A stretch of 62,659 bases of DNA, counting the filler, from Diploschistes diacapsis (taxonomy: Eukaryota), in the NCBI GenBank assembly GCA_023645945.1. It is 11 parts of 11 records of this genome, joined end to end, with 100 filler letters (N's around TTAATTAATTAA, not from the genome) between each part and the next. Parts side by side here need not be neighbours in the genome. Positions count along the whole stretch, not along the records: positions 26,877 to 28,589 come from JALAIB010002697.1; 10 more parts are not named here. One strand, given 5' to 3'. Position 1 is the stretch's first letter. Each line of letters opens with the position of its first letter. Below, one piece after another: positions 2,329-60,848 of this stretch. Under the pieces are notes generated by a model. The model worked only from the letters and a program-made list of their open reading frames with translations, was not told the DNA's origin and ran no database searches. Position numbers and translations under genes: made by a program.

Positions 2329-4495
2329 TCAAGGTGAATCTTTCCACACATCCGGGTTGTCCATGTCTCCGTAATGCGCACGACCTGTGTCATCTCGTTC
2401 TGCATCATCCTCCCTCTCGCCTTCATCAGATGCGATAGCCTGATGGTCTGGATTTAGCCTTTCAGGTTCGAAGCCATGCCTGATGTCTTCTCCTTGATCG
2501 TCATCGCCATATGTCCGTCTGCATACTTGGTTAGCCAGACCCTGTACGTTAATGCAACTGAATGTTAAACATACACAAAGTGTTCGGGTTGATCGAGGTT
2601 CCAATCCGCGCCTCCTTCTTTCCTTGCTCTGACCCTCTCTGCCTCTTCAGCCGCGTCGTCTTTGACGGTCAGATCGACCAGCTGGCTTCTGCCCGATTTC
2701 GAGGAGCTCGAAGAGCCTTCCTGGATCAGGTCTTCAACAACCGGCGCCCTGGTCTTCGACTTTGATTTCTTGTCTCCTCCACTACTCGAGCTTTCCCGGC
2801 GCTTTCCCTTCGTCAGTCTTTCCTCAATGTCCTTCTTTCGCTTCTTCTTATTGCCGTGTGTCGGGTGGAGAATGTTCCGATTGGCCGATGTAGTGAGTAT
2901 AGAAGGTTCAGAGCTATACCACCTCTCTCCTGAAGGAACGTGGGCTGTTATCACCGGGTACTGCATGTGAATTAGCCAGCACAGGTACGTAGGGATACAT
3001 TAGTACACACATTCCAGTCGCCGTACTCCAACACCCTGGCGCTTTCGTACAACCTCTCTTCTTCTGCGTCGATGGAGGCAAAGTGCAGTCCGTCAGCTTC
3101 GTCTCCGTCTCTTGCCCCGTGGCTCTTGGTTCTCTCTGAACCCCCTTCTGTGATTGGCCCGGCACTAAGTAGTGGTGTGCGGCTGTTTACTTCGCCGGGC
3201 TTTGGAATCCAGTACTTTCCTTTCCCATACTTGGAGTACCTCATCCCCTCTTGCATACGTGCCATTCGAGAGTCTGACCCCTCGTGTGTTATGACATTAT
3301 CCGTGGTGTCAAAGGTGCGGTATTCATAATGTTGGCCAAAGAATGTCTCTTTGCTGTCCTGCATCAGATCAATCACCCCAAAAGCATCCCGAAGGGCGAA
3401 TTTGACAGGCATCCGTGCAGCGGAAATTGTATTGTCGGCATAGTCATGCCACGAAAAGGCGTACCAGTGTCCAAGTGCAAACAGTGGCATCTCACAGCAT
3501 ATCAGAGCATCCTGAATCGCAGCAGCCAAGTTGTCTGCTGTATAATTCGGCACATCGGTTGGGATCGCGCCAAGCCATTGTAGGATGGATAGGAAAAAGC
3601 CTTGCCAGTATGATGCAAAGATGATCAACTTGATGCACAGGAATTTCGGTACGGGTCTGAAAGGCTGGAGATCTGACGACATACAGACCCAAAACATTGC
3701 TAAGGAATAGAGACTCACGCAGACGCTGATGTTGTACAGTAGCCCAGCCCACAAGTAGCCCGCGTCGATTCCTAGATAGCCTTCGTGATAGACATCCGTA
3801 GCCTTCATCACGATAGTAGCAATCCCTAGTGCCGGCTTTATCCAAGCATATTGGAGGATCCCGCGCTTAAGGGCCAAAAAGGTATGAGGATCTGAGATGT
3901 CGATTTTTGGAAGGCAATGATTCATCGGCCAAGCGTGCGAGACGGGTGCTCTTCCGTTAGTCATGACAATCACGGATCGCTCGCCGCCGAGGAAATTTAT
4001 GAGTAGCTGAAAAAAGGTATAGATTGTGAATGCCTAAGAAGCATGAGCAAAGAAGCTCGGAATTTTTGACCACCATACCTCATAAATGTCACGCAGAGGA
4101 TCGACATAGAAAGCAACCCTCAACGAAATAAGGCTCGCCCACGAGGCGGCGGAGTAGATCGGGACCCTGTCATTGTGGTTCAGTAGCGAACATTACGCCG
4201 GCTCTTGTATGCTCACATGAGGAGGATTCGGATCACGTAACGCTGGAGGAGTGGCTTCCGGTAGTTCTTTCTAGGCGGTGTTAGGTTTCTGCCATAATAC
4301 AAAGAAATCAAATGACGAACAGCTGTAACCATACTGATCTGAAGGAAAGAGTCAGTACGGGTTCTGTGCGGATACTAGGTATACAGACGCAAATGTGAGC
4401 AAAGAAGCAATCAAAGCAGCAACTCCGCATATTGTGATAGCCACACGAGAGAGCTTGTTCCCAGTTCCTCCACCAGCATCACTGCTGCTCGCCAT
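2329..4495 (-). CDS. HFL1: TMEM184/OST-alpha (DUF300) vacuolar membrane protein, Hfl1-like; multi-exon
   Basis: Spliced reading gives KNYRKPLLQRYVIRILLMVPIY, PKFLCIKLIIFASYWQG and the Atg8-binding-like segment IDAEEERLYESARVLEYGDWNYPVI; GT-AG introns traced; ATG at 4495, stop at 2329. Confidence 0.9.
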
Positions 4496-5081
4496 GCTGT
4501 TACTGTGGACGAGCGACTGCTGCCTTGGCGCCTTGGTGAGCTTCAGGGGAGCTTTCTGGCGCTCATGGGTGGCGTAGAACGTGTCGAGAGTAAAGCGTTA
4601 GAAATAGAGAACGGCAAAAAGTTGAAATACAAATTGAAAGCCTTGGATCAACCATCACGAACGGTGAGAAAGTTGAAGGTGAGCATCCTCGTATACAACC
4701 ATATCAAATGACGTTCCTAACTGGAATTCTGTGACATGCATGTGCCACAAGCAACGCGGCAAATACGCCAAGCACCATGGTCGGCGAAATTTTGAATTTT
4801 CTCCGGCAGAAGCTGGGGATAATTACTAGCGTCATTCTGTCAAGTCTACAACAATCATGGTTCTCATGAATGTTTGAGAGCTTGGAGTACAAAAAATAAG
4901 TGATTATGCTGAAGCCGAGTTCTGAGATACTACAAACTCTGTTTTTGAAGGTCTCGATGTAGTCAGCTTCTCTATGTTAGCCATTCAGGCAACAATCGCT
5001 TGGACTTTGAGACTGGCCTTGCCTGTGGGCTTGCCTGTGGGCAGATGAGGGACGTTGCTGAGAAGCGATGGAAAGGACGCA

Positions 5082-8000
5082 ATGAAGGAAGACTTAGTGG
5101 CACGAGGTCTAAGTTATGGCTCCTTCAACTGGTACCTTGCGCCCTAGGATCTCACTAGCCGGTATCGTAATACTCACATGCTGTAGGCCTTTCGTGGTTG
5201 AGCTTCTCGCCTTTGCACTTGTGTAAGGCTAAATACTTCGCGGATCGTATCTTGGTCTTGCTAATTGGCTGGCATAGGGCAATTGCATTCATTTTCTACT
5301 TCAATAGAGCCCTAGCTTTCCTCGTCTCAATAGCCGTCCGAACATATACTTGGTACTACTTCCGAGCACACATCGAAATTCAAGCAATACAGATATCTCC
5401 GCTCGCGGGACGGATCTTCCTGAAAGGCGTTCGTTATCAAGGTCAAAATGAGACGATAAGCGTAAACAATGGGCATATTACCTGGAAATACTGGTTGCGT
5501 CACGTGCGCCGGGTCGACGCAGGCTCTAAGCAGCCTTCTCGAAACCTAGATGGCTCTAGCAATGCTTCTTTGCCGACTGATCACGACGGAGACGAAGACA
5601 ATGTCGGAGACTTGAACGAGAGGGCCTTCACCTCGAAGAACGAGGATTTTTCGCCTCGAATTACTGTGGATCTTCGCGGCTTGGAATGGTTTGTGTACAA
5701 CCGCAGCCCAGTATATGATGGGGTTTTGGCTGCAATACTCAAGTCTTCCGACGAAAAGAGTGGAAAGGGTGGGGGTGCCAGCTTTGCTCACGGTCATAGC
5801 CACGTGAGCTCCACATCAAGTCAGTCTACTCCCCAGGAGCGTCTAGCAAGCAAGAAAGATGCTCCTCCATCCTCGTTTGTTGGGAATGCAGAAACTCAGA
5901 AAGAACATGATAGTGGTGCTTTTTCACCATCGGGCTCTGCTACGGCTCAAAAAGTCACGTCGGATGGCACCGAATATGCTGGTCTTTCTAGCTTTATGAG
6001 GCTTCTGCCAATTGGCATACAGTGCAAAAAAGGTGCAATGGTGATGGGTAATGAACATACGCGATGTGTCTTGGTGGTTAAGTTTGATTATGCCCACGGA
6101 TTTATAGACGCGCGAAGTTCAGGGCCTCTGGACTTGTACAAGCAGAGCTTTGACTTTGAGCTTGAAAAGTTTGTCGGAAGCTTTCGAGTTAACCAGGACT
6201 ACGGAGAAAGCATATTATCGGCCGGATCACGTCTAGATCCACTCCGTACTGCTTCTGAATCCGAGATTCTGCGAACTTTGAGTCAGGAAAACACCACGAA
6301 GCATGCTTTGCACAAATTATCAAAGCTAATTCCTCAGAAGAAAAGTTCAGCTCCTTCTCCGATAAATGAGAAAGGTGTCTTCGATAATAGTGCTGCGAGT
6401 CCTTCTCTAGGTTTCCCATCCCACAAGTGGCTTGGCTTGTCTCGCTATCTCGACGAAGATGAGGACGAGCTCGTTGAACAAGAGCGCTCGAAGTCAGTGG
6501 AGTATGCTCAAGTCACTACAATCATTGATTGTCCAAAACTGGGAATGAGCTTTTTCTACGATGTTCCTGGCAAGGTCTACAACAATTCTCACCCTGAACC
6601 CCTTACTCAACCGAACAACGGTTCACAGAATATCAATGGCGGTAAACCTCCAGATTGGGGCCTGAATATTACAATTGGTGGAGGCTTAATCAATTACGGC
6701 CCATGGGCAGATCGACAACGAGCAGATTTGCAGGCAGTTTTCTTTCCCCAAGCATATGCGTTGACAAGCGCTGCCAAACCTCTCAAACCAGGACAATTGC
6801 GGCAAAGTACCCAATTCAAAATCGATATAGTTATTGATGAAGCTGTTGTTCTCCGTATTCACACCAGGGAAGAATCCAAAGACTGGAAATGGAAAGGGCA
6901 TTTTCCAAGAACTGCGGAGACACATGGCGGCAAATTTGGGGGAAATCAGAAGCAAAATAAGCATGAGAAGCAGGATTCAAATGTGGATGTTCGGCCCGCC
7001 GGATGGCTGGATCTCACTGCGGCAGCAAATAGTTACGTCTCCTATTCCATGGATATGTTTGCTGGCTCCTCGGGCTTCGAAAATAAACTGAGTCTTGATA
7101 TCCCTTCCTTAAACTTGTCCACTAGTGTAAATCATAGCTTGTTGCTTCGTTCTAGGAATCTTACAATAAGCTGTGATTTAGCTACACCTTTGCAGTGGAA
7201 CGCTCAGCGCAAGTGGATTTTCGATCTCAACTGGGAAGCTCTGGAGCTCTTCCTGCTACGGGATCACGCTTTTCTTCTCACGGACTTGATAACCGACTGG
7301 ACCACAGGGCCTCCCGCGGAATACCCTACGTTCATACCATTCCTATACGGCATCAAGCTCCGATTTCCAGCGTTCAAGATTTACCTGAACGTCAATGATT
7401 CAAACATCATAGACTCTCCTGCTGCGCTCAACGCAAACGCTTTTATGGTTCTGGGAGGCGAACTCCTGAACGCCGAACTCTCTATTCCCTTAACAAACTT
7501 TCGACCCTTGCACAACGAGATCAGCTTTTCCGCAAACGTTTCAAAACTTTATATGGAGCTGCTTACGCCTCCTTGGAACACGCTGAGTACTTTACTGAAA
7601 AGCAAGGTGATGGCCAGACTTGACGCGCTTTCCGCCACGGGATCTTACACCTATTTCACATCAACGTCGCCCTCTCAAACTGAAACATTGATAATGGACC
7701 TCCATGGAACGGCACTGACTGTGCAGCTCTTTGGATTCCTTATCCGTTATTTCATTTCGTTCCAAAAGAACTATTTCGGTGAGGACATGCATTTTCAAAC
7801 CCTGGAAGAGTATCAGCAGAGGCTCGCTCTTCCCAGCGTCGATCAGTCTGTACAACAGAACAGTCGTCATGTCAAAGCATCTAACGATTTAGATGTCATT
7901 CTAACAATCAGGGCCGACGAAGACTGCATTGTTCTTCCTTGCGGACTCTATTCAGCAGAGACTAACGTTAATATCGCCATCTCCTCGGTTCTAATAGATC

Positions 8001-11000
8001 TGCGCTTCACCAACTATTACATGGACTTGGAGATATGTGCGGCCCCTCTAGCCTTCACGCGTGGCTTAGCAGAACCTGTGACAGTACTTGCGGAATCATT
8101 GGTGTCAAATACCCAGATATTCATTGATGGGCTGTCAATATCGGGACATCGCCTGTTCGGACTTCCGCCTACTGAGCCTACCTACGTTTGCAACTGGGAT
8201 TTGGATGTTGGTCGTATAGTAGGTGAATGCACGCTCGAGTTCATGAGTGCTGTAGCGAATGCTGGCAGAGTAATCACTTTCCAATTTCGCGATACAGAGA
8301 ATGCGCTACCTAATGTTAAGCCCACCATGATACATGACGTGACTTTTCTGCGACTAGGACTAGATTCAATGAGATTATGGATGCACGTGCAAAACTCGGC
8401 GGTCCTGTTGGAAACACACCAAATTGATCTGGATTTCAACGATTGGGCAAAGCAAACTTTCTCGGAAATCGCCCATGCAAAAGCACCGCATATTCTCCTG
8501 TCTCTTGTTGACGCTGTTTCCGCGGTTAGGCAGCGGAGCAAGTCAAAGACACCAGTTTTAACGCATGGTGTCCTGCGAACTTCGGTGGATTTCCGCATGG
8601 CAGGGTCCAAGGCAAATTTCAAAAGAGAAAGAGAGCTGCAGCAAGACCACATTGAATTGCACGACTCTAGAACCAGACGAACACCCTGGCTCCGGTTTCC
8701 GAAAGGGTCGGGCATATCAACGTCAAGACAAGAACCTCATCTTAGGCCGCGACCACCAGCTATGGCTGTTCCGCCTATTCCCGAGCCCTTGCAAAGCTAC
8801 AGCCACGATACTAATTCATCGACGTTCTCGCAAGAAGAATCTGGGCACCCTTTCCTTAGTAGACACCATTCTTTCTTATATGCTGGATCAAATTCCAATA
8901 CAACTTCTGAACCTATGTTTGCACCTTCGCCTTCTAAGAGCGAGCCGATAGCCGGAAGACCGAGATTCGTTGTAGTAAACCGAGATTCGGCTGAAGCCTC
9001 GCAAAGTACGCGGAGGACAACCCCTCCGCAGTCGAGTCTAGCATTTTCCAGTCCATTCGACCGTCCGTACTTTCCCTTACAATCTACTGTGCCAGATATT
9101 AGCGGTCTACCGCTCGATCTCCTTCCACTAAACAATGGCGACGACATCGACCATCACACAGTCTCCGACACTCTGGGCGAAGATGGATGGGAAGCACCTG
9201 AAGACGACACTGCTCGTACAAACCTGTTCCTTTCTTTTGGCCCTGGAGTGCAGGCATATTGCAGTTCAGAAGCTGTCGCAACTATCAACGATATCATCTC
9301 TTGTCTACAGCCTCGTAATCCAGAACAGATTTTGGACGACATCCAGATGCTGTCGGTGTCAAGCGTTCTAAGCGAGATATCAAAACAGAAGTCCATTTCC
9401 ACCAGTCTGCAATTACATCTGAGCGTACCTGCAATAGCTGCAAGACTTATCGACTCAACCCAAGGCGTTCGAAATCCTACGCATTGCCAAGCATACGAGC
9501 TAAGTGCATTCGATTTACGAACAATTGCTCGATTTGAGGATGGAACACAGCAACGTCAGTCAGCGGGCGTAGAAAAATCAGTTTTAGGGCATGGATTGTT
9601 GCGAAGAGCCCGACTAACTGTCAAAGGACAGGCTAAAGGCACTTTGGACCAACAAACCCGGTTGGATGTCATCTTCAATAACTTGACTGTCTGGCTGGCT
9701 CGGGGAATCCTTATTTCAAGTCAATTACGGATTAAGGGAGTAGAAATCATAAGCCTGAATCGGAGGGTTGAATACTTGTCAGCTCTGCTCAGTGGTGCGA
9801 CCGAACTGTTGCAAGACTTCATTAATATATTCGCACAAACAATTACTTCACAAAAAAGGAGATTACAAATATTAGTACGCAGCCTCGCCACTGAACATGC
9901 AGTTTCAGCAGGCCCTATGTTCCTAACGACTGTGTCTTACGTTCTGCGGGCGGCTTCGAGCCATCTTCGTAACACTGATACCTGGAAAATCATCTCCCGC
10001 CTTAGATTCATATACATGAGCTTGTCCACGGAAGACCAAATTAGGTTGAAGTCGCAATGGCATGAGTCATTCCGTCCGTCCCTCGAAAATGAAGTAGAGA
10101 TGATTTCGATTTCTCTTAACAGATGGCGCGCCTGGGATTTGGTGCAGGTAAAAACGAGTGCTTTCATGCAAGAAATATACGGGGCAGATTTGTCAAAGAC
10201 AACATCTGCGTTTGCTGCGTCGTCTTTCTCTCTCGGGCTCAACCTTGGCTCTTTTAAAGCCATAATCGACCCTGGTCCGGAGCAGAACGAGATTGAAGTC
10301 AAACAGCTGTTTATCTCGGTGGATTCGTCACTTCGTCATATAAAGGCACAAGATTCAAGGGACCATAGCAAACGTCTCTCCACAATTGCGTTGTACTGTG
10401 ACTCGACTTCCATACATCTCAATTGGGAACTCTGTGAGATCGTTGTGAATATCTTGGATTTATTATACGCTCCCAAGCCTGGGGGTGACAGTTCTGTGGC
10501 TGCTCCCCAGGATATGATTGTAGAGCAACAAGATACTGGACTTCCTCAAGTTCTAAATAGCTTGCAATTCGTGCTCGCGCTTGAAAATATTGATTTGGGG
10601 TTCAAAAGCATTAATATAATGGTCAACTCGCTGAGTCAGTCCGTCAAAGCCTCTCTACTGGTAGATCAAGTCTCGGCCACAGAAACCACCATGAACGCTG
10701 TTCTTAGCGCACAGCTAATAGCTACACAAGTTTCGAGCCACCTACGATCTCTAGCCCTTGTCCAGATAGTATATCCCTCCGTGAACGGCTTCTTGATTTT
10801 ACGAGATGGCTCTCAACAGCAACTGAGAACATGGAAGGGTGGTGCCTTCTGTACTAGAATCGGTCTAGAAGTGCATGAAGATGCTCTTGGCCTGCTTGGC
10901 GTAGCTGATATGCTGCTAAGGGATGAGCTATCCTACCTAAAGCAGAAGAAGGCATCAATTCCAGCTAAGCTTGTGGCACAATCAGAAACACACCAGCCTA

Positions 11001-25061: not shown

Positions 25062-25330
25062 TTAATAAATTTATAATAATATTTCGGTGAATTTATTATA
25101 ATATAATATCCGTAGAAATATTCGTGTTTTAAAATTTTTAGTCGTAATGTTCGTGTTCGTGTTTTTATTATAATGTAGTGTCCGTGGAAGTGTTCGTGTT
25201 TAAAAAATTTTAATCGTAGTGTCCGTGTCCGTGCTTTTACTGCAGTGTAGTGTCCGTGGAAGTGTCCGTGCCGAGAAAATTTTCGCGGTAGTGTCCGTGT
25301 AAGTGACCGTGGCCCGCAACGGCCAGCCTA
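25062..25330 (-). mobile_element. Terminus of a DNA transposon (hAT-like) with a 72-bp subterminal tandem array
   Basis: TCCGT(G/A)GAA at 25109, 25181 and 25253 (72-bp period); many GTGTCCGTG motifs; minus-strand start TAGGCTGGCC at 25330. The superfamily call is inference. Confidence 0.5.
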
Positions 25331-25367
25331 TCTATAAGACTGACATTTATATTATTTACTTGTGCTG

Positions 25368-25642
25368 ACGTGTTTGACGGGGAAGTGGGCCACCCCAGAA
25401 GTGGGCCACTTCTTATTACAACTTTCATCTTTTTTTTCGATTTTTTTAATAATGGCCACGTCGTATAATACCGATTTAATTTTATTAAAATTTAATATTA
25501 ACCATTGTATTAATGTCTTAAATTTTTAATAATATATTAACGTTCGAGAAGCTATCCGCGTATTTAAAGTTCCTCGTTTAATTATTATGCGTCGATTTAT
25601 TGAAGTATAATTACGTTTTAATAATCACGGATCGAGTTAAAT
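25368..25642 (+). mobile_element. Fot1/pogo left TIR and transposase start, interrupted by an LTR element
   Basis: ACGTGTTTGACGGGGAAGTGGGCCACC; colinear with 59239-59514 until similarity stops at TGTAAAGG (25643). Confidence 0.85.
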
Positions 25643-26321
25643 TGTAAAGGATGAAATGCAGTAGTGTGATAGGAATGGTTATAGTATTTATGAACTAATC
25701 TCTAGAGAAGAAAAGAGGAGATCCTTTTATAAAAATTCTTCTTATATGGACCTACGGCCTTAACGCGGCGTTAAAATTGAATTTCTCCGCTCGCCCGAAA
25801 AACTATTATAATTATTTATTATAATCATTTTTTTCTTTTTTAATTCTAAATCTCTAGAACCGTTATTTACGTTTATCTAAAAACTTCCGTAAAGATCCCG
25901 ATATACTTTCCGTTAACCCCGCGAAAGGATAACGGACACGTATTCGCCGTAAAACGGAAATCTATCGGTATAATTCCGGTTAATTAATATACGAACCGAT
26001 ATCGATTTCTTAACGCGTAAAACGCGGATATATAAATTACGAATATCTATAAATTAAAATATATAATAATTTTATAAGATAAATATATTAATAATAAATC
26101 CTGTCGTCCCGATATATCTTTATAATCTTTATATTTTTTTAATCTTTCTTTTACTTCTTATCTTTAATTATAATTTAATAACCCTTTAAATAAAAATATA
26201 ATAAAAAACTTTCTAAAAATACCTCTACCTCGGCTAATATACGTATATCCCGCGATTAAATTCCGGAAGATCAACGATTAACGATAATAAAAAACAACCT
26301 AATTCTAATCCTCGATTCTAT
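25643..26321 (-). mobile_element. RIP-degenerated LTR retrotransposon 3' end (LTR ~25643-25823)
   Basis: On the minus strand a purine run AAAAAGAAAAAAAA precedes a ~180-bp segment ending TTTACA at the junction with the Fot1 copy; upstream DNA is AT-rich and stop-riddled. Confidence 0.5.
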
Positions 26322-26776
26322 TGTTACGATCCAAGTAACTAGGTGGTAGTCCACTTGGCACTTCACAGCTGATCGGGCATCTTCCCAACCACTCCTTGTA
26401 TATAGTACAATCATAATGACACTGATCACGTGATAAGTAGAAAACCTTAAAAGCTATTTTACCCTCTATAGGTAGAACGGGAGAACGATAGTTTTATTTA
26501 TTTACTAATCTATTCTATTAAGAAATAATTAACTATATAAAAACACGCCATGGCTCCTATAAATTAAGATATATTTACTTTTATAAACATCTTTAGCGAT
26601 TACTCGAGATCAATTTATATTCGTTAATTTCTATTAATAGAAAGTAATCTTTCTATAGATCAGTATAGATTTACAATCGATCTATTTCTTTTTTTTTTAT
26701 ATTTTTCTTCTAATAAAGATCAAATTTACTTTAATTAATACCTCGTGTCTATTTTATAGAGATAAAGATTATAATA
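26322..26776. repeat. Probable LTR of another family
   Basis: Abrupt start TGTTACGAT with higher GC; contig ends in ATTATAATA, compatible with a RIPed ATCGTAACA inverted terminus. Confidence 0.45.
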
Positions 26777-26876: not shown

Positions 26877-27520
26877 GATTACATAATTGGGACACGTATT
26901 AACAATAGTCATGTACAGTTAGTGGACCACAATTGTGTAAATCCAGAAAATTTGAAGTTTGTTACAGAGAGTGTTGAGTTTCCACAAACTATTTACGGGA
27001 GACATGAAATTCAACGACCCAGTCAACATATTCTGAAATTTTTTTTGATTACATAATTGGGACACGTATTCACAATAGTCATGTACAGTTAGTGGACCAC
27101 AATTGTGTTAAATCCAGAAAATTTGAAGTTTGTTACAGAGAGTGTTGAGTTTCCACAAACTATTTGCGGGAGACATGAAATTCAACGAACCAGTCAACAT
27201 ATTCTGAAAAATTTTTTGATTACATAATTGGGACACGTATCTCCAATACTCATGTACAGTTAATGGACCACAGTTCTGTCAAATCCAGAAAAATTGATGT
27301 TTGTCACGGAGAGTGCTGAGTTCCGACACTTTGTTTACGGGAGACATGAATTTCAACGATCCAGTCAACATATTCTCAAAAAGTTTGTGATTACATAATT
27401 GGGATACGTATCTCCGATACTCATGAACAGTAAGTGGACCACAATTGTGTCAAACCCAGACAGTATGAAGTTGGTTACAGAGAATGCTGAATTCCCACAC
27501 GTTATACGGGATCAACATGG
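26877..27520. repeat. 171-bp tandem array (~3.8 units, open at the contig start)
   Basis: GATTACATAATTGGGA starts at 26877, 27047, 27218 and 27389 (periods 170/171/171); unit 2 has stops in all six frames. Confidence 0.97.
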
Positions 27521-27988
27521 TTCGAAAGTCTCTTTGGTGCTGACAAGCAAGTGCACATACTATTGTTGTCAACAACCTTGCTGCCCAAAACTTTTCGACC
27601 AGTGGATCGTGGAAAGTTTCCGGCAAGCAAATTGCACAAAAATCGCATCATCATGATTCACGCTCTCAGCCTTCTACACAGCTTGAGTCGCTTGATGAGT
27701 CTGTTTTCAGCAACTTGCAAGGCCAGTTGGTGTCAGAATGAAGCCCAAAGACTTCATTACAACCCATGCGTGACTTTAATGAGTTGACACAACCAGGTCA
27801 AAGGTTGAGTACCATCACCCCCATGCCCTTGCATGGTTGATTAGTTTGATGATCAACATCATGCCCTGATCTTCATTAAGAGCCTGCCCGCTCTATTCCG
27901 GTACCGGATTGAGATGGATTGGGCATTTGTTGCACATAAAGTGATTAGGACATAAGGCTATCTTTTTTTAGAGTACACAAGGAGGGGG

Positions 27989-28589
27989 ATGCCAGTCGTA
28001 TGTGAAACGTGTTTGACACAATTCCCATCCAACTACGAACTTGCTCGGCATCGGAATCGGAAAACACCTTGCAAGGCTAAAGACGTGGAGTGTCCGGAAT
28101 GCAAGCACAAGTTTACGACACCAAGAGCTCTGAAAGCTCATATCAAAGATGGGCGTTGCAAAGGCAAGACCGACGCAATGTTGGCGGAAAATCTAGCAGA
28201 AGAAAATTTTAAATTGAAGAACCAGCTGGAGCAGCAATCCCAACTAATGAATATGGCTAACCAAGCTACAGCAACAGCTGCCTATCAAACAATCAACAAC
28301 ATACAGAACATCGAAACTCAGAAAGTGGTCGTCAATGTCCAAAGTCTGCAAGTGACTAACAGCATTGGGGAGGAAAATTTGCGTCATTTGTCCGGATTAT
28401 CTGCCCTTGAGCTTCGCCAAAAGCTTCTTGTTCGTCATGATCCGGAAGCACTTGCTCTTTGGTGCGAGCTTACACGGGCAGATGAAGCACACCCAGAGAA
28501 CCACAATGCTCTTTTGCAAAGTGAAGACAGTAGCCACATGACGTGCTGTCGTGGGGGGACCTGGGTAGTCGAGGAGAAAGATAAGATTC
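27989..28589 (+). CDS. Intronless zinc-finger/coiled-coil protein of giant-virus (NCLDV, MIGE-like) type; truncated
   Basis: CETC-x12-H..RKTPC and CPEC-x12-H...RC fingers; coiled coil; N/I-rich linker TINNIQNI; NSIGEENL; HPENHN; W-x4-KD. Confidence 0.75.
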
Positions 28590-28689: not shown

Positions 28690-29969
28690 ATACAACACGT
28701 AGCGCCAATACTTCGTAACTTCGACCTTAACATAAACTACCAATAATTCGGAAATGATATACTTAATATATCTAAAATATTAATATGATTCTATCTACGT
28801 CGGTAATATGCTTTCTTATAAGCCTATTAATAGAACTAAACAAGAATAATAAAGAGCTCGCCTTCTAAATATTTAAAGAAAAAGCAAATAGTTCACAAAT
28901 AAAACCGATTTTAAAAGCAGCGATCCTAACATTATTAATATCGCTATTAATCATAGGCTCTAAAATAACAGTATCTCCAAATAAACGATTAATAGGCACG
29001 AAACATAGATACGAAACGGATATATTAAAACTCGATTAAAAGCTAAAATCCGGAAACGATTGAAAAAACGTGATAATAAGCTCTATTACGGACTCTATTA
29101 GAAGCGTAATAACAATCGAAAAAAAACTAGAAAAATCAGGGCTAAACATAGGTAAAGAAGTGATCAATACATACCGCTTATAAGACCTACTACGACGTTA
29201 AAAACGGATAATAGGCTCCCTTTCTACCGCCTACACGAGCTTATCTATAAACGTATCGCCTTTAATCAAAAACATCGTTAAAAACGTGTTAAAAGCTTAC
29301 TCGGACGTTTTAAAGATATGCTTTAACATTTTAATCAAGAAAGTATAAGAAGTAAGACACCAATAACAACGAGAAGCAAAAACGGACGACGAACGAGAAA
29401 CAAGAACGAACGGCGATAATAACTCGCTAATAAAATCTATAACATGAATTAAAGGAATAAGGGTTAAAAGATAAAGAAATAAGATATAAAAATATCACAA
29501 ACAAGATAAAGATATTATAATAAAATTAATATCTAAATAAAAACATTATTAATTTAATAAATATTTAATCTACAAATAACCAGCGTCGATATTAGAATTT
29601 ATTTATATTATAATTAACTACTAACGAACCTTAGAATATACATACAAAAACGAGAATAAGCTCGATCTATATTAAGGATCGAAATAATAACGATATAAAT
29701 CGAATTAATCATCTAATCTATTTTAATAGGCAAAGAAAGGACCATAAAGGTGGCTCTGAGGGACCAGAGCAAGAAAAAAAGAGATAATTGTAAGGCCAAG
29801 CAAGAAGCATGCCAATAGTCGGACAAGCGGCACTCAGGGTCTTGGCTTGCGGGTACTTGAAAGGGGATTTTGCCCTTCTTACTCTCTCCTCTTCTTTAGT
29901 AATTAGTCCTAGCATGAATATGCCCTGCGTACAGCCATCTTGCCACATTGTCGTATTCCACCCTTTACA
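28690..29969 (+). mobile_element. RIPed LTR-retrotransposon 3' region with PPT and 181-bp LTR (29789-29969)
   Basis: AAGAAAAAAAGAGA purine tract then TGTAAGG...CCTTTACA GC-richer segment; upstream internal region too decayed to assign. Confidence 0.55.
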
Positions 29970-30502
29970 AATATTATCCCCTTTTTTCAATTTTATCGAC
30001 CCGACAAACACCGAAAAATAAACATAAATACTAAATAAAAGAAAATCCCAAATCGTGGAACAGCGATATCTTCTTTTTTTTCGAAATAAAAGAAACGTTT
30101 AAACATTATCATTCGTTTTCGGGGTTATCTAGACATACTATTTTATAATTATTGTTTCTTTTTTTACGATTATATTAGAATACTTTTTATCTCTATTAAA
30201 TACGCTCGTTGTGGTAAATCTAATAAGAAGGATTGCATTTATGTTATCTAAAAAATAATTAAACGAATTATCCTTTCGATTAAGGAAGAGATCGATAAAG
30301 ATAAAAAGCTTATTAACGAGGATAATAAATAAAAAGAAAAACTAAAAAAATAATTTCGTGAAATTAAAAATTGTCGTTTTTAATGTAAACGTCGTATTCG
30401 TCNNNNNNNNNNNNNNNNNNNNNNNNNNNNNNNNNNNNNNNNNNNNTTAATTAATTAANNNNNNNNNNNNNNNNNNNNNNNNNNNNNNNNNNNNNNNNNN
30501 NN

Positions 30503-31261
30503 ACCATAAACGACCGATTATTTAATCGAGAATAAGAACGTCGTTTTAATCGAAATAAAATTATTAGACTAAAACTTCGCTACCGTATTAGTTATATAAA
30601 AAATATATAAAATATAAAATATATAAATAACGATACCATAAATCTCGATATTTTAACTAGTAAACCCCGGTTCAATTAAAAGAAAGGAGCTAAAAGATTC
30701 AACGGGGGACCTTCAGCTGAAGGAAAAAAATGTTTCGAATGTGGCAAGATAGGCCACTTCGTTCAAGATTATCGATCTAAAAATAAGATCATCAGGAAAG
30801 ATACCCTAACCGCGACAGATTAATATCTTAACGTAATTATAATTATCTTTATAGAAAACTATCCGACCGACGGATAACCCTAGAAGGAAGTTATAATTAA
30901 CTCGGATACCATAACCTAACAAAACGACACCGACGACTTAACTAATAAAAATATCGAAACCGCGTTTTTGCAAATTATAACATTAATTACGTAAATTTCG
31001 AAAAACAACGATATTCCGAACCTAAATGTAACGGAATACAAAAAATCGACTTAAACATACGATCTAATTCCTAACGCCAGACCAAATATTCAAGAACCTT
31101 TAGGAATTAATTTAAGCGAAGAAGCAGCGTACGCGTTTCGTACTTTAAAAAAAGTTATAAACAAACAAAAGTATCTTCAAAAAAAAGTTCTTATCGTTAA
31201 TAATCGGAAACATCTAAATTACATACTTTTCGACGAATATAAAAACTTCGGATACAATTAC
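30503..31261 (+). mobile_element. Retrotransposon gag remnant with zinc knuckle
   Basis: 30731-30772 reads CFECGKIGHFVQDY = CX2CX4HX4C with the last TGT RIPed to TAT. Confidence 0.75.
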
Positions 31262-32215
31262 TGCTATGTAAATCATCTGTAAAATCAAGTGTGAGAAGTG
31301 TGTAGATTCGTAGCTAATCTGGAGCAAAATCTACTTATATACAGTAGATGCCAAGCGTTATCGTCATAGATGATACCTAGACAGCGAGGTCGGCAATATT
31401 TGCCTTAACAGCAACCTACAAGCAAGCCCAGCAACTACCACAATCTCCTTCTTTTAGTAAAAGCTTATGCCCCCATAAGCATATATCTATCTTATATTTT
31501 TATCAATAGCGATCCCAAAGCATCTTCTTTTATACTTATTTATCTTAGAGAAAAAATCTCCCACAAAGGCTTATTAAAAGTCCTTAAATAACAAAGTAAC
31601 TTTAATTCTTTTAAGAGATTAAAACCTTTATAATCGTCGCCATTTTTATTTACATCCTATTTTTAGTTTTATTTAATCTTTATAAGTTCGTTATAGTTTT
31701 TTTTATAATCGGCGACGAAGTTTTTAATATATCGTAATAATTCTTTCGACGATATTTATATATTTTCGTTAACATCGTATCCCGTCCAATGTATTAAATA
31801 CTTTGTTTTTTATCTTTTACTCTTCTTAAATTTCCTTTTAACTAATAATTTATTTATTTTATAATATCCTTCCTCCAAATCGATTGTTATAGATAGTAAA
31901 AATAAAAATCGGCGGTGATAAAGGTCGCCGACGGGATCTAAAACAGGTTCTAAATATGTTATATTAATAATATCGTGTATTCTATAATATTAAAGGAGTT
32001 TCAGCCTATAAGCGAGCTTATCTACTCGTTTAAAAATCTTGAAAGGATTTTATAAATTATGGCGAAATTTTCTTATTTAAGGCCACGAGTATCTTATATT
32101 TTTTATATAATTATAATATCGCAAAATCTCCTTCGCGTATAAAACAAACCTTATATCTCCGATCGTACGTTTCTTTTATAATAATCTTTATTATAGCTAA
32201 TATATCCTTCGTATC
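31262..32215 (-). mobile_element. Ty3/gypsy chromovirus 3' end (integrase tail, chromodomain, PPT, LTR ~31262-31442)
   Basis: Minus strand: KRVDKLAYRLKL...RIHDII, KYLIHWTGYDVNEN (chromodomain), PPT AAAAGAAGGAGA then TGTGGTAG. Confidence 0.8.
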
Positions 32216-43883: not shown

Positions 43884-46778
43884 CTAAGTTCCAGGAGTCG
43901 CCCGGCGCTGCTTCACCTTTCCCCATTCCTTGCCTCCACCTGCTGGTCTCTTCCGACCAGCGACAGCATACACCCGCTTCTCCTTCTTACCATCCGCCGA
44001 ATCGTCCATGTTACTCTGTTCCCCGACCGTTGCAACGATACTGCTAGCCGGAGGATCCACTTCCACCACCTCTGTCCCTTTCTCATAAAGAGAGGCATTC
44101 TCCTCGAATTCACGCTCCCGAGCAGCGACAGCTTCTGGTTCAAGCTGCCTGGCGTGGGCGAGCAGATCGATGGAAGAGTCATCTGACTCTTGGTCACCAC
44201 TCGACTCGTGCCTGGTGGTGTTCGACGAAAATGTATGCAAGAATCTAGACGGAACAAAGCGGCCAACATTCTCAACATCGTGCTGCACGTCTTCCATTTT
44301 ATCGTCGCTATCTCCTTCGCTACCGCTACCGTCATCGGATATGCTCTCCGAAGAGAACGGTAAGAGGGCGTACGAAGGCGGAGGCAAGGCAGATGGTAGT
44401 AGGTCAAGCTTGCGCGTAGACAATATTTTGGTCTCAACAGCAGATTCCTGCAACAGCTGTCGATGTTCGACGCGAACCTTGATCGAAAAGTTATCTCCCG
44501 GTACGACGCCACCGAGTCCGGAAACTTCGAAAGACTTCTCCTCTCCTTCACTAGACGGAGACTTACATGACTTGCCTAGACCCTCTGCGAGGCCCGTAAT
44601 TATGGGGGTACTTGTTGACTTCTCCCAAGAGTTTACAGAGCCTGGGTCCAGTGACTTCGATACCAGGCCATTGACTTCACTCCGGCGTTCCTCGTTGTTC
44701 TTCCCAACGCTACAACCAACAACTCCGTCAAAATCTTTATCGTAAAGTGGACAGTTGTAGGGCGTGTTTTCCTCGTCTTTACTCAAATCAGTGTAAAAGC
44801 GAGCACGGTTGTAGAAAATAATGTGGTCAACCCCCTTTCGGAAATTGGACCGAATCGCGGCATTTATCGCATTCCCATAAGGTGCACCATCTGCATCCAA
44901 GGCACTCGTACTTTGCATTGGCGTAGCGGAAACAGAAGATCCTTCGCCATCGAATGAACGATAGCCATCTTCTCCTACCTCCAGAGAGTGGTAGAAGATT
45001 GGCCTGTACTGGTATGGATCTTCAGACAACGTCTGGTTCAGCAAGAGTGGTCTTTGCCGGTCAAGATTGGATTTGTAGGTGCCGGAATATGGATCCTTCG
45101 ACGTCTGAACGTTGCCACTGATACCTGAATGGACCTCTGTTGAAGGTTTGCTAGGCTTGCTGTGGCCAATATCCTTGCCAACGCCAAGCTCGTAGGGATA
45201 GGATTCGGAACTGTGTTCCGAGCTCTCACCACCGGTATCGATAGTTAACTTGGTGACTTCGTTGCCTCCTTTCCACCTGATGCGGCTTCCATCTGTAGAT
45301 AGTTCAAACGTCGCGCCAATGTCATGGATAGAGTCGCGCACAAAGTCTGGCGTGACATTCAAAGTGTGGAGCTGTGCCATACTTATCAGTAAATTTAGAT
45401 AAATCCATCCCTCATCTCCCTCTGATCTCTTCTCATAGTCCAATTCTGGCGAATCAAAGCCCAAATGTTTGATGTACTGAACGTTCTCTTCGGGGTTCTG
45501 GGCCCGAGAAGGGTCCAGATCCAGAGGCCTTGTGGGTCGTTGAGAGGGCGTTGGGCTACTGCCTGTACTTGTATCTTTGGGGTTCCACTCGTCGGAGCTT
45601 TTCTCGGCGGGGGAGGCCCCTATATGGTTGGAAGTCCGGTTTGCGGTGGGGAAGATTTTGGCTTCGCGGCTGCCTTCGGCTGTCACTTGATGACCGCAAG
45701 CCTCACTCGCCCGTCTGTCGGCGTTGGCTGCAGACTGTGAGATCTCCTGTTGTTGCCTCGATTGACTGTGCGTATTGGAGCTGTCTCTGCTGCCAGTATA
45801 AAGTTGTTCAAGACGCTTGACGACAAGCTGTTTCTTTGCTTGCTCTGTCATCACAGGAGAATGCTTCGGAAGAAGACGCTGTGAGATTGACTGCAGATAC
45901 GAGCGCACATTCTGGTCGTTTGCTTTAGCTTTACCGGGAACAAGACTCGGGTCTGCTTTCTGTAGACGTGATTCGGAGTTGCCACCGAAGGCTGACATGG
46001 AAACGTATGCAGAATCCAGTGGGCGAGAGTTCGACGTCCCAGACGAGGAGGGTTGGTGACGTGGCGTTGGCCTGCGACTAGGAACATGGGATAACCTCTG
46101 GGCAAAGGCAGATGGAACATCCTCTTCCCCCGCATCTCCCATACTTGACGCGAAGTCTTGAAGAGCACGCTCCAACCTTCGCTTCTTGGAAGCGGGCAGA
46201 CCGTGCACTCGAATTTCGAAGAGCTTGTCATTCTGTAATTTCCCACAGTGTAGCTCTTCATATTTCTGCAGCTTCCGCCTCAATCGACGATTTTCGATTG
46301 TGAGATCGTCGATAACGCTTCGAAAGTCTTCATTGCTATTCTCTAGAATGTAGTTTTGTGACGCAAACGAGTCTGCGTGACAGGGGCGACGACCGCCGTT
46401 GGAAGAGGCAGATGGGTGGAACCGATCCCGCGAGGCACTCTCAGAGGACGATTTTTTTTTCAAGAAGAAAGGAGGGTCGTCGTTCCCAATGAATCTTGCG
46501 CTACCTTCTCCAGATACGTTCTTGTTTGAGTCAATGAACCAAGTCCTGGCCGATCCACCATCCTTCGGCAATCTAGACCCATGACAGATTGAAGGGTCTT
46601 CACCATTCGCTGCGATGTTTGAAGCAACGCTGAGGCTATCACTGTCCGCTCTGGCCGATTTCTCCGAGCTGTGCAAAGGCGATTTCCTGATGCAGACGGA
46701 TTCGGCACGCGATACCCTCTTCGGGTGTATCTGATTCCGGGCTTGAGTCGGAAGCTGCGAGCGAGTACCAACGGACAT
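43884..46778 (-). CDS. frq: Circadian clock protein FREQUENCY (964 aa)
   Basis: DFRSVIDDLTIEN coiled coil, KLFEIRVHGLP, KKQLVVKRLEQLYTG, QRPTRPLDLDP, GWIYLNLLISMAQLH, EVSGLGGVVPGDNF. Confidence 0.96.
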   Translation of the reverse strand: MSVGTRSQLPTQARNQIHPKRVSRAESVCIRKSPLHSSEKSARADSDSLSVASNIAANGEDPSICHGSRLPKDGGSARTWFIDSNKNVSGEGSARFIGNDDPPFFLKKKSSSESASRDRFHPSASSNGGRRPCHADSFASQNYILENSNEDFRSVIDDLTIENRRLRRKLQKYEELHCGKLQNDKLFEIRVHGLPASKKRRLERALQDFASSMGDAGEEDVPSAFAQRLSHVPSRRPTPRHQPSSSGTSNSRPLDSAYVSMSAFGGNSESRLQKADPSLVPGKAKANDQNVRSYLQSISQRLLPKHSPVMTEQAKKQLVVKRLEQLYTGSRDSSNTHSQSRQQQEISQSAANADRRASEACGHQVTAEGSREAKIFPTANRTSNHIGASPAEKSSDEWNPKDTSTGSSPTPSQRPTRPLDLDPSRAQNPEENVQYIKHLGFDSPELDYEKRSEGDEGWIYLNLLISMAQLHTLNVTPDFVRDSIHDIGATFELSTDGSRIRWKGGNEVTKLTIDTGGESSEHSSESYPYELGVGKDIGHSKPSKPSTEVHSGISGNVQTSKDPYSGTYKSNLDRQRPLLLNQTLSEDPYQYRPIFYHSLEVGEDGYRSFDGEGSSVSATPMQSTSALDADGAPYGNAINAAIRSNFRKGVDHIIFYNRARFYTDLSKDEENTPYNCPLYDKDFDGVVGCSVGKNNEERRSEVNGLVSKSLDPGSVNSWEKSTSTPIITGLAEGLGKSCKSPSSEGEEKSFEVSGLGGVVPGDNFSIKVRVEHRQLLQESAVETKILSTRKLDLLPSALPPPSYALLPFSSESISDDGSGSEGDSDDKMEDVQHDVENVGRFVPSRFLHTFSSNTTRHESSGDQESDDSSIDLLAHARQLEPEAVAAREREFEENASLYEKGTEVVEVDPPASSIVATVGEQSNMDDSADGKKEKRVYAVAGRKRPAGGGKEWGKVKQRRATPGT

Positions 46779-55512: not shown

Positions 55513-56192
55513 ATTTAGATTATATTAAGAAAGTTAAGGTGGAATATGGTAATAGTATTTTATATTTAGAATATATTATGTATGTTTTAGGGTTGAAAGC
55601 GAACCTTATATCGGGGTAGAAGTTATGTAAGGTAAGCTTACGGGGAAGTTTCGATAAAGACGGTTTATATTTATATAATAGCGAAGGACGGATCATTTTC
55701 ATATGTAAGAAGAAAAATGGAGTTTATTACACAAGCAAATTTGCTAAGGGAGAATATATATATGCTGTAGAGGTATATTTAGCGAAAATAACTGAACCAG
55801 AACTGAACCTAAAAGTTCAGTCGAATAAAACTAGTTATTAATTATGGCATGCGCGTATTGCTTATATAAGATTTAAAAGGCTTTAGCATTTTTATGAAAT
55901 AATAACTCTTATTAATCCGATTCGAGTTATGCTATATACCTATAAGATATACTAACTGACCAAAGCCAGGCAGTAGATAAACCATACGCTCGTTAAGCAT
56001 AAGCATGGTTTACTGGATCTAATAAATATCGATATTTACGGTCCATTTTTAAAGTCTCTTAAGAATAATTAATACTTTATAAAAATCGTAAATAATTACT
56101 CGCGTAAGATTTGGTTTATCTTATATAAAACCCGAAAAGAAGCCGTTCGTATTATGTAGTATTAGAAAGTAAACGTTGAATATTAAAGTAAT
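55513..56192 (+). mobile_element. Ty1/copia integrase remnant (RIPed)
   Basis: LWHARIAY (pre-integrase), LDLINIDIYGPF, YFIKIVNNYSRKIWF. Confidence 0.85.
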
Positions 56193-57224
56193 TGAGACAG
56201 ATCAGCCCAGGCGTGCCAAGCCACCGGGGTCACATGACGGCAGGGTCACATGACGGGTACCAACCGTGCCAAGGATGTTAGGGGGTGGCTGTGTAGGCGG
56301 GTAGAACCCGAACCCCGTAGGGCTGGCATCTATATACTATTTATTCCTATCACTTTTTTATTTAGATAGGTTCCTCTCTAGCTTTTCGAATCGAGATTTT
56401 TTATTTATAAATGCCTAGCTACACGTAATTCTTCCGGATCAGGCCCAGTTTTCAGTAGTATAGTATTCTATTCCTGCGTTGGCGTTTCATATTCGAAAAC
56501 CTTATTTTACTTTCGCACTCGTAACGAGAATTTAAAACGTTAACCGAATTAAATATTCGAATAAGTCTACGACAACCGGAACTCGAAAATACTACCCGCC
56601 GATTTATTATAAATAATAACTCCCGCTAATAAAAAGAATTAAAAGAAAAAGAAAAAATCGATAATACTTTCGTTTTTTAAAAAATCAACCGAGATATCAT
56701 CGGTTAAAAAATACGATTTAATAAATGAATCGCCAGTTAAAAAACAATCCATAAGATATCCCGCGTTATAATAATTATTAACGCTAAGAATCATCAAAGG
56801 ATTTAATATTAGCGAAAAATTAGTACCGGGAAGATCTAAAAAAGGTCCTCGCGACGAACTCGAATGGAAAAGATCCTCGTTTAAAAACCTAATAAAAGAA
56901 TGTGTTAATTAATAAATAATAATCGAGAACGTAATAAAGCTATAAATATTAAAGCGAGTAAAAGAAATCTATTATCGAACCGAAAAAGAATTAACGGAAC
57001 TTATTAAATTAATACGTATTTACGTAAAAGCGGTCGAAGAAATAACCCAACGAAACGAACGAAAGATTTAACGATTTTAATAACAATTCGAGAAAGATTT
57101 AATTAAACGAAACGAATTAAAATAATTATTAAATAGAGAATAAGAGACCCGGGCTTATCTAACCGACGAAATTATCGACTTACGAGCAGCGATTAAAGAA
57201 TTTCGAAATCAACGAGTATTTACG
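56193..57224 (+). mobile_element. 5' LTR (56193-56489) and RIPed gag-side region of the 297-bp-LTR retrotransposon, inserted into copia
   Basis: Second copy of LTR 307-603; no PPT before it; followed by ATTCGAAAA and a decayed coiled-coil-like coding region. Confidence 0.82.
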
Positions 57225-58021
57225 NNNNNNNNNNNNNNNNNNNNNNNNNNNNNNNNNNNNNNNNNNNNTTAATTAATTAANNNNNNNNNNNNNNNNNNNN
57301 NNNNNNNNNNNNNNNNNNNNNNNNAAATATTTATATTCCGACGTAATTTTAAAGCGAAATAAACGAACGGTCAATTTCTATTACTTCCGGTCTCTTGTAA
57401 TTTTTACGTGGTAAAAGTCGAGCTATTTTTAAATACTAGAGCTGTTCTTGAACAATTTTGAAAAAAAGGAGATGCCGCAGCTATTTAAAGATTTATATAA
57501 AGATTAATCGAATGGCGCGATAATATTTACAACGAAACGGACGTCGAGCCCCATTTCGATTTTAAAATATATTTATATAATATACGAGAGACCTTTATGG
57601 CCTCTTTCTTTCCATTTCTTTTAATTCTGCGTCAGTTATACCCCGAAACTGCAATCAGATATATTATATTAGACCTCGAATCCGACTCGGAAGTCAAAAC
57701 TCTCTACCAACGACATACTAATAATATCAGACACTTATCCGCCAAGCTGAGATCAATGGTGGAAATATATAATAAAGCGTCGAAAAAAAGACCCGAAAGC
57801 TTACCGATTTTAAAAACCTTAATGTTCACATAATACCCGGTAATCGCTGATTTTTACGCAAAGATATAAAGTCTTCTTTAACCTTTTAAACATTAAAATC
57901 TATTGTTTATATCCTTTCTTTATTCGTTCCATTAATAATGATATAATTCATCCCGCAGGTTCTAAGCGGTCATACTATCCTTAACATTAAAAACATCCAC
58001 GACTCAAAAAAAAAAATACTA

Positions 58022-59036
58022 ACGTGTTTCACGGGGATTCCGGCCACCCCCAGATTCCGGCCACCTTAAATCACTATTTTCATCTTACATTCGATCTTTC
58101 TCAATAATAACTACCTCGCATAATAATAATTCGATTCTAATAAAATTTAATATCAACGACTATTTACAGGTCCTAAAATCATAATAATATATTAACATTC
58201 GAGAAACTATTCGCGCATTTAAAATATCTTAATCGACCATTATAAATCGACTCGATAAAACTTAATCTCGCATTAAGAACTACGAAACGATTTAAATCCT
58301 TTTAAATTCGGAAGAAAAGATATTAATACGATAGATTACACGTTTTACATAAACTGGCTTTCCTGCATCGTTTACGTTGGTGGTAGAAATGACCGAAGAG
58401 ATTCGACGCGAAAGAATTTAATTCGGTTCGAATTTAAAAGTCACGATCGCGAATCTTTAATTTATCGATAAAAATTAAATATCGCGATTTCGCAAACGAT
58501 TTCTTAAAATTATTAATATTTAGACGAGATAGATCGAGTCGAATAAATTTAATACGATAAGTTACGAGGCTATACAACGGTGGTTCGATGTAATGGTAAT
58601 TTAATATAATAAAGGATAATACGCGCCCGAATATATCTATAATATAAACGAGTTAGGTTTTAATATTAATGATAATTCTTTCTTTAAAACCTTCGTTTCG
58701 AATCGAACAAACTCGAATTAAAAGATTATTAAAGGAAAACAAAAGTAGATAACTACGATCGAATACATCTTAATTATTAACGGAATATTACCGCCGATAA
58801 TCATTTTTAAAGCATTATACACCAATATTAGCTAAATTCTAGTCGAAACGCCTCGAAACTAGCTATTCAATATTAATAATAAAAGATAAACAATAAATAA
58901 ACACGGTTATTAATAACTTATACGTATCTTTAAGCCTCTAACTAGACCGAATCGACCCGAAACGCGTCGTTTATTAATTATAAACGGTTATAATAATTAT
59001 ATTACCGCTAATATTATTCGCTTTTGTATATTTAAT
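58022..59036 (+). mobile_element. Fot1/pogo transposon, 5' half, RIPed
   Basis: TA + ACGTGTTTCACGGGGATTCCGGCCACC TIR; colinear with 59239-60250; IYNINELGF corresponds to RIPed YNMDETGF. Confidence 0.9.
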
Positions 59037-59238
59037 NNNNNNNNNNNNNNNNNNNNNNNNNNNNNNNNNNNNNNNNNNNNTTAATTAATTAANNNNNNNN
59101 NNNNNNNNNNNNNNNNNNNNNNNNNNNNNNNNNNNNGGATAACTAGCGGTAAAAACTTGCTAAAGTTCTCACGGCGCGAATATTCACGCTTACGTAATAT
59201 AAAATACGCCATTTTTAATATTTTCGCGATAATATATA

Positions 59239-60848
59239 ACGTGTTTGACGGGGAACCGGGCCACCCCCTGAAGTGGGCCACCTCTCATTACAACTTTCAT
59301 CTTTTTCTTCGATTTTTTCAACAATAACTACCTCGCATCGTAATAATTCGATTTTAATAGAATTTAATATCAACGACTGTTTACAAGCCCTAAATTCTTA
59401 ATAATATACCAGCGTTCGAGAAATTATCCGCGTATTTAAAGTTCCTCGTTTAATCATCATACGTCGATTTATTAAAATATAATCACGTTTTAATAATCAC
59501 GAATCGAGTTAAATCCTTTTAAATCCTAAAAAAAAGACATTAATACGATAGATTACACGTCTTATATAAATTAGCTTTTCTACATCGCTTACGTTAATAA
59601 TAAAAATGGCCGAAAAGATTCGACGCGAAAGAATTCAATTCGGTTCGAATCTAGAAATTATGATCGCGAATCTTCAACTTATCGGCAAAAATTAGGTATC
59701 GCGATTTCGCAAACGATTTCTTAAAATTATTAATATCTGGACGAGATAGATCGAATCGAATAAATTTAATACGATAAGTTACGAAGTTATATAACGGTAG
59801 TTCGATGCAGTAATAATTTAATATAATAAGAAACAATACGCGCCCGAATACATTTATAATATAAACGAGTTAAGTTTTGATATTAATAATAATTCTTTTT
59901 TTAAAGCCTTCGTTTCGAGTCGAACAGGCTCGAATTGGAAGGTTATTAAAGAAAAATAAGAGTGAATAACTACGATCGAATATATTTCAATTACTGGCGG
60001 GATATTACCGCCTATAATCATTTTTAAAACATTACATATCAATACTAACTGGATTCTAGTCGAAACGCCTCGAAACTAGCTGTTTAGTACTAATAACAAA
60101 AGATAGATAATAAATGAATACGGTTTTTAATAGTTTATACGTATTTTTGAACCTCTAATCAGACTGAATAGACCCGAAACGCGTCGTTTATTAATTATAA
60201 ACGATTATAGCAGCCATATTATCGTTAATATTATTCGCTTTTGTATATTTAATCGAATCGATTTAATAATATTACCACCGTATAATTCTTATCTTTTTTA
60301 ATTACTCGATGTCGCAGTGTTTTCGCCGTTAAAAAGCGCGTTGGCGCAAAAGACGGATCATATTACTCGATTAAATGGATCGCGCATGGCACGCTTAGAA
60401 TAAGTCGAATTGTTTTTAATAACTCGGAATTGAGCTGTTACGAGTCGAAACGCTTAGGCAGACTTTGTAGATACTGGATTATAGTTTATTAATCTTATAA
60501 CCGTGTTTGATAAGCTTTATTCGACTTATCGGACCCCTTCACTTCCATCTTACAGTTCTTTTTCAACCTCGAATCAATTCGATTTGAATTTATCTTTATT
60601 ATATAGCTCTTCACCAAATACGACCGAACTACGAAAGGCTAATAAAGAGTTTAATTAGGCGTTACGAGCCGTTTTAGAACTAATTAATCCGATTCGACGT
60701 TATTCGAATCGAGTAACTCGTATGTTTGAATCGACGCATATTAAATTCATAACGTTTCGTAAAGAAAACCGAGAACAAAAAACGCTTCTTAATAATCGTA
60801 AAAAACGTAAATTAAATAAACGAATCGAATTAAAAGATCGTTTTATGT
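59239..60848 (+). mobile_element. Fot1/pogo transposon, near full length, RIPed
   Basis: TA + ACGTGTTTGACGGGG TIR; decayed catalytic motifs IYNINELSF, RRLLIINDYSSH, LPPYNSYLF*LLDVAVFSPLK. Confidence 0.92.

Follow-up and report, generated by a model that had tools for sequence, protein, structure and literature searches.

Does a tandem array of 171-bp units that lies ahead of a zinc-finger gene form with that gene a single selfish or partitioning module, and to whose genome do the two belong? The question is raised by a window of 62,659 nucleotides (the whole stretch of DNA that was analysed) from GCA_023645945.1, an assembly of the lichen fungus Diploschistes diacapsis, in which 11 contigs are joined by N linkers. 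Array and gene lie at 26877-28589, which is one entire contig of 1713 bp (JALAIB010002697.1; G000:C1887, G000 being the source assembly), and each of them occurs only once in that assembly. A preliminary description of this contig had read the units as possible binding or origin sites, or possible processed RNAs, recognised by the adjacent protein, and had compared the pair with MIGE, the Major Interspersed Genomic Element.

The reading that we prefer, with a probability of about one half (0.52), is that DNA of the photobiont Trebouxia has entered a lichen-fungus assembly here, and that the contig is a piece of an algal genomic element which derives from a virus and has moved recently. Its MIGE-type protein would combine two zinc fingers that read DNA sequence with a coiled coil and a domain without catalytic function, whose shape resembles the ring collar of giant-virus D5 primase-helicases. 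The fingers may bind short DNA words in or close to the gene that encodes them, and the collar-like domain may self-assemble or contact the D5 helicase of a helper virus; an element of this kind, with no cutting enzyme of its own, would be copied or recombined through borrowed viral machinery. The array would then serve this larger element as a repeat in cis, of origin-like or subterminal kind; it would be passed on together with the gene, and the fingers probably do not read it.

A giant-virus protein family in Trebouxia

The contig holds the 5' part of the gene, and the complete protein was recovered as P0001 (329 amino acids), from which the window part differs at one residue (site 28407). 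Pfam PF00096 matches two zinc-finger stretches (E 4e-8), and the C2HC ligands, C5 C8 H21 C28 in the first finger and C35 C38 H51 C57 in the second, are invariant across 20 aligned relatives. The full-length protein has an extra coiled coil at its C-terminus. Longer fused forms were absent among 8000 candidates, which is weak evidence. An identity with DUF1390 was rejected, as it was reached by only 4 of 37 members, below the cut-off and over the N-terminal half alone.

Structure and embedding searches led to large DNA viruses only. Distant relatives are encoded in 212 IMG/VR stretches, close relatives were not found in IMG/VR, and scans of IMG/VR, JGI metagenomes and GTDB gave no DNA locus of a close algal relative. 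A full scan with the finger-less P0004 yielded 61 representatives; the features common to all are two C2HC fingers, a coiled coil, an N-rich linker, G-x-E, HPENHN and an invariant Trp. The near-identical relatives of P0001 are Trebouxia gene models, at least one in sp. C0009 (among 15 of the 28 members listed) and three, on three contigs, in sp. C0010. In a quick unrooted tree, for which every second viral core was taken and P0055 and P0061 were dropped, 37 proteins from Logan, ENA and NCBI, Trebouxia included, split from 36 giant-virus rows with a Shimodaira-Hasegawa-like approximate likelihood ratio (SH-aLRT) support of 98.

Several copies of the gene exist in Trebouxia, where it seems to have moved recently. 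Those of C0010 agree with one another at 93-97%, two of them being apparently broken, and the C0009 copy is 99.2% alike to one C0010 copy over 266 amino acids. Since the two genomes are given in PMC11523091 as aligning at 85.93% over 64.41%, this protein identity suggests recent spread between Trebouxia species, although strong conservation might produce the same figure. Furthermore, a 27% paralog in C0009, ABBQ38_006361 (P0108), is 15 locus numbers away from ABBQ38_006346 on equal-length contigs, a spacing that fits a larger virus-type region holding several paralogs.

Some cousins of the family may carry a nuclease. Two loci (L033:4428-5636 and L045:4548-5864) encode the family domain with an N-terminus that by eye is GIY-YIG/T5orf172-like in place of the fingers, and a structural match from Terrestrivirus bears the name GIY-YIG nuclease. 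Residues ~180-225 of P0108, in the N-terminal part that the gene model joins to the paralog, show an H-x-x-R ... G-R-W ... Y pattern that by eye is reminiscent of tyrosine recombinases; it had no Pfam, PHROG or PDB support and was set aside.

A predicted collar-like domain

In the structural model the HPENHN domain has the topology of the D5 collar, that is, a helix, a three-stranded sheet and a three-helix bundle, and the C-terminal domain is therefore predicted to resemble the collar of giant-virus D5 primase-helicases. The preliminary description had asked whether the missing C-terminus folds as a nuclease or recombinase; with P0001 in hand, Foldseek against PDB gave no such fold at E ≤ 0.001, and the match obtained was collar-like instead. 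Faint kinase and Fic rows (Foldseek probability ≤ 0.15) were dismissed. Pfam D5_N had no match in the protein, and a homo-oligomer prediction with four copies of residues 122-272, run without alignment, scored 0.00 with the fold itself uncertain, and carries no weight in either direction.

In two giant-virus loci a family gene adjoins, or lies at most 4 kb from, a D5 primase-helicase gene (L083:2687-3496 and 3538-6480; L024:4699-5622 and 8883-10415).

Linkage of the array and the gene

The array had been placed about 470 bp upstream of the zinc-finger open reading frame (ORF); the distance from the end reported by Tandem Repeats Finder to the ORF start at 27989 is 489 bp. It had also been cautioned that the pair rested on a single truncated contig, a doubt that sequencing runs now lift. 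Among 24 listed runs, 14 from 8 studies, lichen metagenomes included, hold at least half of the sampled words. Contigs were compared in the DNA-type runs X1, X2 and X13, which come from three studies and of which X1 is possibly the source sample, and in the poly(A) run X19, the RNA runs X15-X18 and X20, with small shares, being left out. A single contig in each of X1, X2 and X13 spans from 27211, 27243 and 27427, respectively, through spacer and ORF to beyond 28589, with 1, 10 and 9 letters different, and array pieces are present in all four runs. Array and gene are genuinely joined and stably linked.

The runs also indicate that this is not the only place where such units occur. Summed contig depth over the array and over the ORF, a measure that is not copy number, reached 207 and 16 in X1, 332 and 111 in X2, and 129 and 14.8 in X13, and degenerate units sit on other contigs with different flanks; the array is therefore longer than seen here, or has sisters. 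An identical loose end stands ahead of 27310 in the three DNA runs.

Run X19 contains a relative that differs at 63 positions; it covers 27804-28589 with a depth of 27.4, and the spacer at 27804-27988, the 185 bp upstream of the gene, is common to this 92% relative. The array piece of that run, at a depth of 2.2, is not joined to it. These contigs do not show transcription; DNA can occur in a poly(A) library. The gene contigs of X13 (DNA) and X19 (the RNA relative) end 1135 and 1147 bases past 28589, some 750 bases beyond the stop codon, which hints weakly that they share a boundary downstream. In addition, a 68-bp segment of the spacer (27698-27765) with a 7-bp stem is present on a second X2 contig that differs from the window on both sides; it is possibly a cis motif shared by related elements.

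Is the array the target of the protein?

Tandem Repeats Finder reports a period of 171 with 3.6 copies, 88% matches and a score of 929. The units start at 26877, 27047, 27218 and 27389; units 1 and 2 are 97% identical and the remaining pairs 83-85%, and divergence grows toward the right edge. A 10-bp palindrome that the preliminary description had named is found in units 1, 2 and 4 and is missing from unit 3. The array has a G+C content of 36%. It was rejected as a coding repeat (171 bp being 57 codons), given the stops in all frames across units, and its units were likewise rejected as decayed gene-start modules, having no homology to the gene start apart from one 13-mer. GpC is strongly depleted in the array (3 in 623 bp, ratio 0.15; 1.08 in the spacer and 1.22 in the ORF).

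What the family does upstream of its genes was assessed in the viral relatives, where the 220-300 bp before the ATG were considered and words were counted at 63 of 78 loci, after removal of 8 near-duplicates and of 7 loci that were cut or fused. At least three exact 9-mers within 220 bp upstream were found in 21 of 63 genes and in 5 of 81 non-coding controls; most of them are 11 or 21 bp apart. A C/CT tract precedes 31 of 63 genes against 8 of 81 controls. The words of these genes are private, short (9-21 bp), helically phased, and about 200 bp or less from the ATG. Repeats with periods from 30 bp were seen upstream at 16 of 63 viral loci and downstream at 11 of 74. Long-period arrays stand upstream of 1 of 67 viral family genes and of 8 of 649 others, with none of period 150-190 before a family gene, in relatives that are distant (20-28% identity). 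The expected enrichment of ~170-bp arrays upstream of homologs consequently fails in the relatives that can be tested, and the units as cognate sites of the protein are left unsupported.

Within the locus itself, one 5-mer occurs 11 times in the spacer and the initial 200 nt of the ORF, where 2.1 occurrences are expected and none of 300 shuffles reaches 11, and never in the array; several of its occurrences are Cys-Lys codons. As the finger-to-word code was not recovered, we do not claim this word as a site.

Several results weigh against our preferred reading. On the docking side, the query's own 220 bp upstream are without a C tract or phased 9-mers, covariation of fingers and words was not found in the viral loci (rho -0.02, 34 of 83 loci), and like fingers in seven viral genes do not predict the enriched spacer 5-mer. 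As to the collar, hhalign against D5_N gave a probability of only 1.4-2%, though above all shuffles and position-specific; D5 rows were absent from the top 50 with a poorer model, and a wide structure search, its listing filled by coiled coils, was without them. With respect to the element, no further part of it is seen beyond this 1.7-kb contig; a packaging ATPase, a capsid of nucleocytoplasmic large DNA viruses (for which the control was silent), an integrase, D5_N and the paralog were unmatched in G000, an apparently filtered assembly that is itself without rbcL and light-harvesting genes. Finally, the linkage in three runs could represent one orthologous locus.

Other explanations

The best surviving alternative, which we still regard as unlikely, is a two-part system in which the array is the expanded leader of a stand-alone MIGE-type unit, its units docking the protein and the whole serving as an origin or partition site for collar assembly. 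It draws support from the joining of array and gene in three runs, from the repeated words upstream of the viral relatives, and from a 13-bp word within the finger-1 codons that matches array unit 4 in reverse, a length of 13 or more being reached in 18 of 500 shuffles (p 0.03 by local alignment, the lowest among 8 tests). This word is, however, altered at three letters in the X19 relative, which belongs to a sister subfamily with nearly identical finger helices, and no word is over-represented within one array unit. The scarcity of long-period arrays before family genes argues in the same direction, as do the short words close to the ATG, which do not resemble a unit of 171 bp at a distance of 489 bp, and the several-fold array depth and degenerate units on other contigs, which place units elsewhere too.

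Less probable again is that the array is a minisatellite of the host, ordinary in kind and with a nucleosome-like unit length, and that one copy of a virus-derived gene has landed beside it, giving a single inherited locus with no functional link. A period of 171 bp is frequent among satellites, the diverged edge units agree with unequal crossing-over, and units occur on several contigs with different flanks; moreover, a comparison of the array with 106 viral loci showed no homology (best E 0.16), and an array 17-mer was without an exact match in IMG/VR. Nevertheless, array, spacer and ORF are similar in composition (CpG 0.5-0.8, CpA 1.3-1.7), the array has no 10-bp A/T periodicity of nucleosome type, and the loose end shared by three DNA runs suggests a fixed array boundary.

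A bolder version, to which we give slightly less credence still, would make the algal MIGE branch a minimal nuclear parasite of giant-virus replication: the fingers would dock on the array, the stand-alone collar would seed or hijack the D5 ring of an infecting virus, and array and gene would be amplified and carried between Trebouxia species without a transposase. If true, it would supply MIGE with a mechanism and a eukaryotic reservoir.

Two further explanations are highly improbable. A fungal origin of the contig, or its being an assembly chimera, is largely refuted: it sits in a fungal assembly in which rbcL and light-harvesting genes had no match, so that the assembly seems to have been filtered and this contig to have escaped the filter, but near-identical proteins occur in cultured Trebouxia, the signature of repeat-induced point mutation (RIP) is absent from the contig (CpA 1.48, CpG 0.66), and the identical array-gene join recurs in runs of other studies. 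That the units are transcribed and processed to structured RNAs bound by the fingers is equally doubtful, for although the predicted fold of the + strand is somewhat more stable than those of shuffled sequences (z -1.97, 9 of 200) and one array-like contig appears in poly(A) run X19, that of the - strand is not (z -0.26), Rfam has no match to the unit at E ≤ 1, internal inverted symmetry is not above shuffles (p 0.10-0.88), and the X19 piece is shallow, unjoined and may derive from DNA in the library.

Features of the contig and of the remaining window

Table 1. Coordinates of the features on the contig, counted along the window
Feature	Position	Strand	Remarks
Tandem array, 3.6 units of 170-171 bp	26877..27499	.	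Left contig end cuts array
Non-coding spacer, 489 bp	27500..27988	+	
5' 200 codons of the 329-aa intronless two-zinc-finger/HPENHN (MIGE-type) gene	27989..28589	+	Open to right contig end, which cuts gene
Zinc finger 1, C2HC, residues 5-28	28001..28072	+	
13-bp word within finger-1 codons	28011..28023	-	Reverse complement of array unit 4, 27443-27455
Zinc finger 2, C2HC, residues 35-57	28091..28159	+	
Long helix / coiled coil, residues 62-106	28172..28306	+	AlphaFold2 model, mean pLDDT (predicted local distance difference test) 88.9; N/Q-rich low-confidence linker after
HPENHN domain start (residues ~148-270 in full protein)	28430..28589	+	Helix, three-stranded sheet, three helices; predicted collar-like
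HPENHN motif, residues 168-173	28490..28507	+	

The larger contigs of the window carry, by eye, ascomycete-type genes. An ORF of 964 amino acids at 43884-46778 (- strand) is reminiscent of the fungal clock protein FRQ. Seven small AT-rich contigs (25062-26776, 28690-32215 and 55513-62659) are depleted in CpA/TpG and have an excess of CpG (CpA 0.4-0.7, CpG 1.4-2.8), a pattern that we read as fungal RIP-mutated repeats; one of them has a 72-bp tandem repeat at 25092-25300.

Comparison with known systems

MIGE is described as a lone zinc-finger ORF after short non-coding DNA, present in up to 20 copies (12 in PgV-16T and 6 in CeV-01B), with a mode of spread that is given there as unknown (bioRxiv 10.1101/299784, PMC4669402). 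As in those accounts, a single zinc-finger ORF lies here behind non-coding DNA, in several dispersed copies and without a recognisable transposase: three copies on three contigs are found in C0010, and one in G000, which is without most algal DNA. Unlike MIGE, the gene is in algal nuclear contigs, on a branch apart from the 36 sampled giant-virus rows, and the near-identical named relatives belong to Trebouxia and not to Mimiviridae; the protein has 329 amino acids with its extra C-terminal coiled coil, and a 171-bp array stands upstream. The C tract and phased words of the viral relatives are lacking too. We take the MIGE-type assignment from the architecture and from one Foldseek match to the CeV-01B protein A0A0N9QRA7 (E 9.5e-5), itself of unverified MIGE status. 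The comparison made in the preliminary description thus holds for the giant-virus family and the MIGE-like architecture, and does not extend to a Mimiviridae host or to the viral leader; the gene behaves like MIGE, and by its host and leader it is not a member in the strict sense. Our analysis places a MIGE-type gene in the genome of the most common lichen alga, where it shows signs of having moved recently from one species to another. As chromosome-scale assemblies exist for the carrier strains C0009 and C0010, the ends of the element, target-site duplications and the link of array and gene can be read there directly.

Other virus-associated elements share parts of this arrangement. The multicopy C2H2 genes of pacmanviruses and the terminal repeats of megamimiviruses likewise offer multicopy zinc-finger genes beside repeats at recombination-prone sites, and transpovirons carry a zinc-finger gene together with a tandem repeat in their interior, as these are described in PMC11788076 and PMC13712841; in contrast to them, a helicase and a terminal inverted repeat are not seen here, and the likeness is one of arrangement. 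Endogenous giant-virus and polinton-like elements of green algae, as presented in PMC10120064 and PMC9356565, resemble the locus in an intronless virus-type gene, part-decayed copies and CpG depletion, but no capsid, ATPase or integrase is tied to this contig. A literature search found no description of the gene in Trebouxia or of its collar-like fold; most subscription papers and the original MIGE papers were outside that search, and supplements of the Trebouxia paper may list the genes.

A structural parallel is the collar of D5/E5 of poxviruses and of C962R of African swine fever virus, which is the N-terminal part of Pfam D5_N (PMC9611036, PMC10516667) and has been supposed, in PMC9611036, never to occur without a following helicase. 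Unlike these proteins, the predicted Trebouxia domain is fused to zinc fingers, without a primase or superfamily 3 (SF3) helicase, and such a collar-like tail would offer an element that has no nuclease a testable route through the D5 helicase of a virus.
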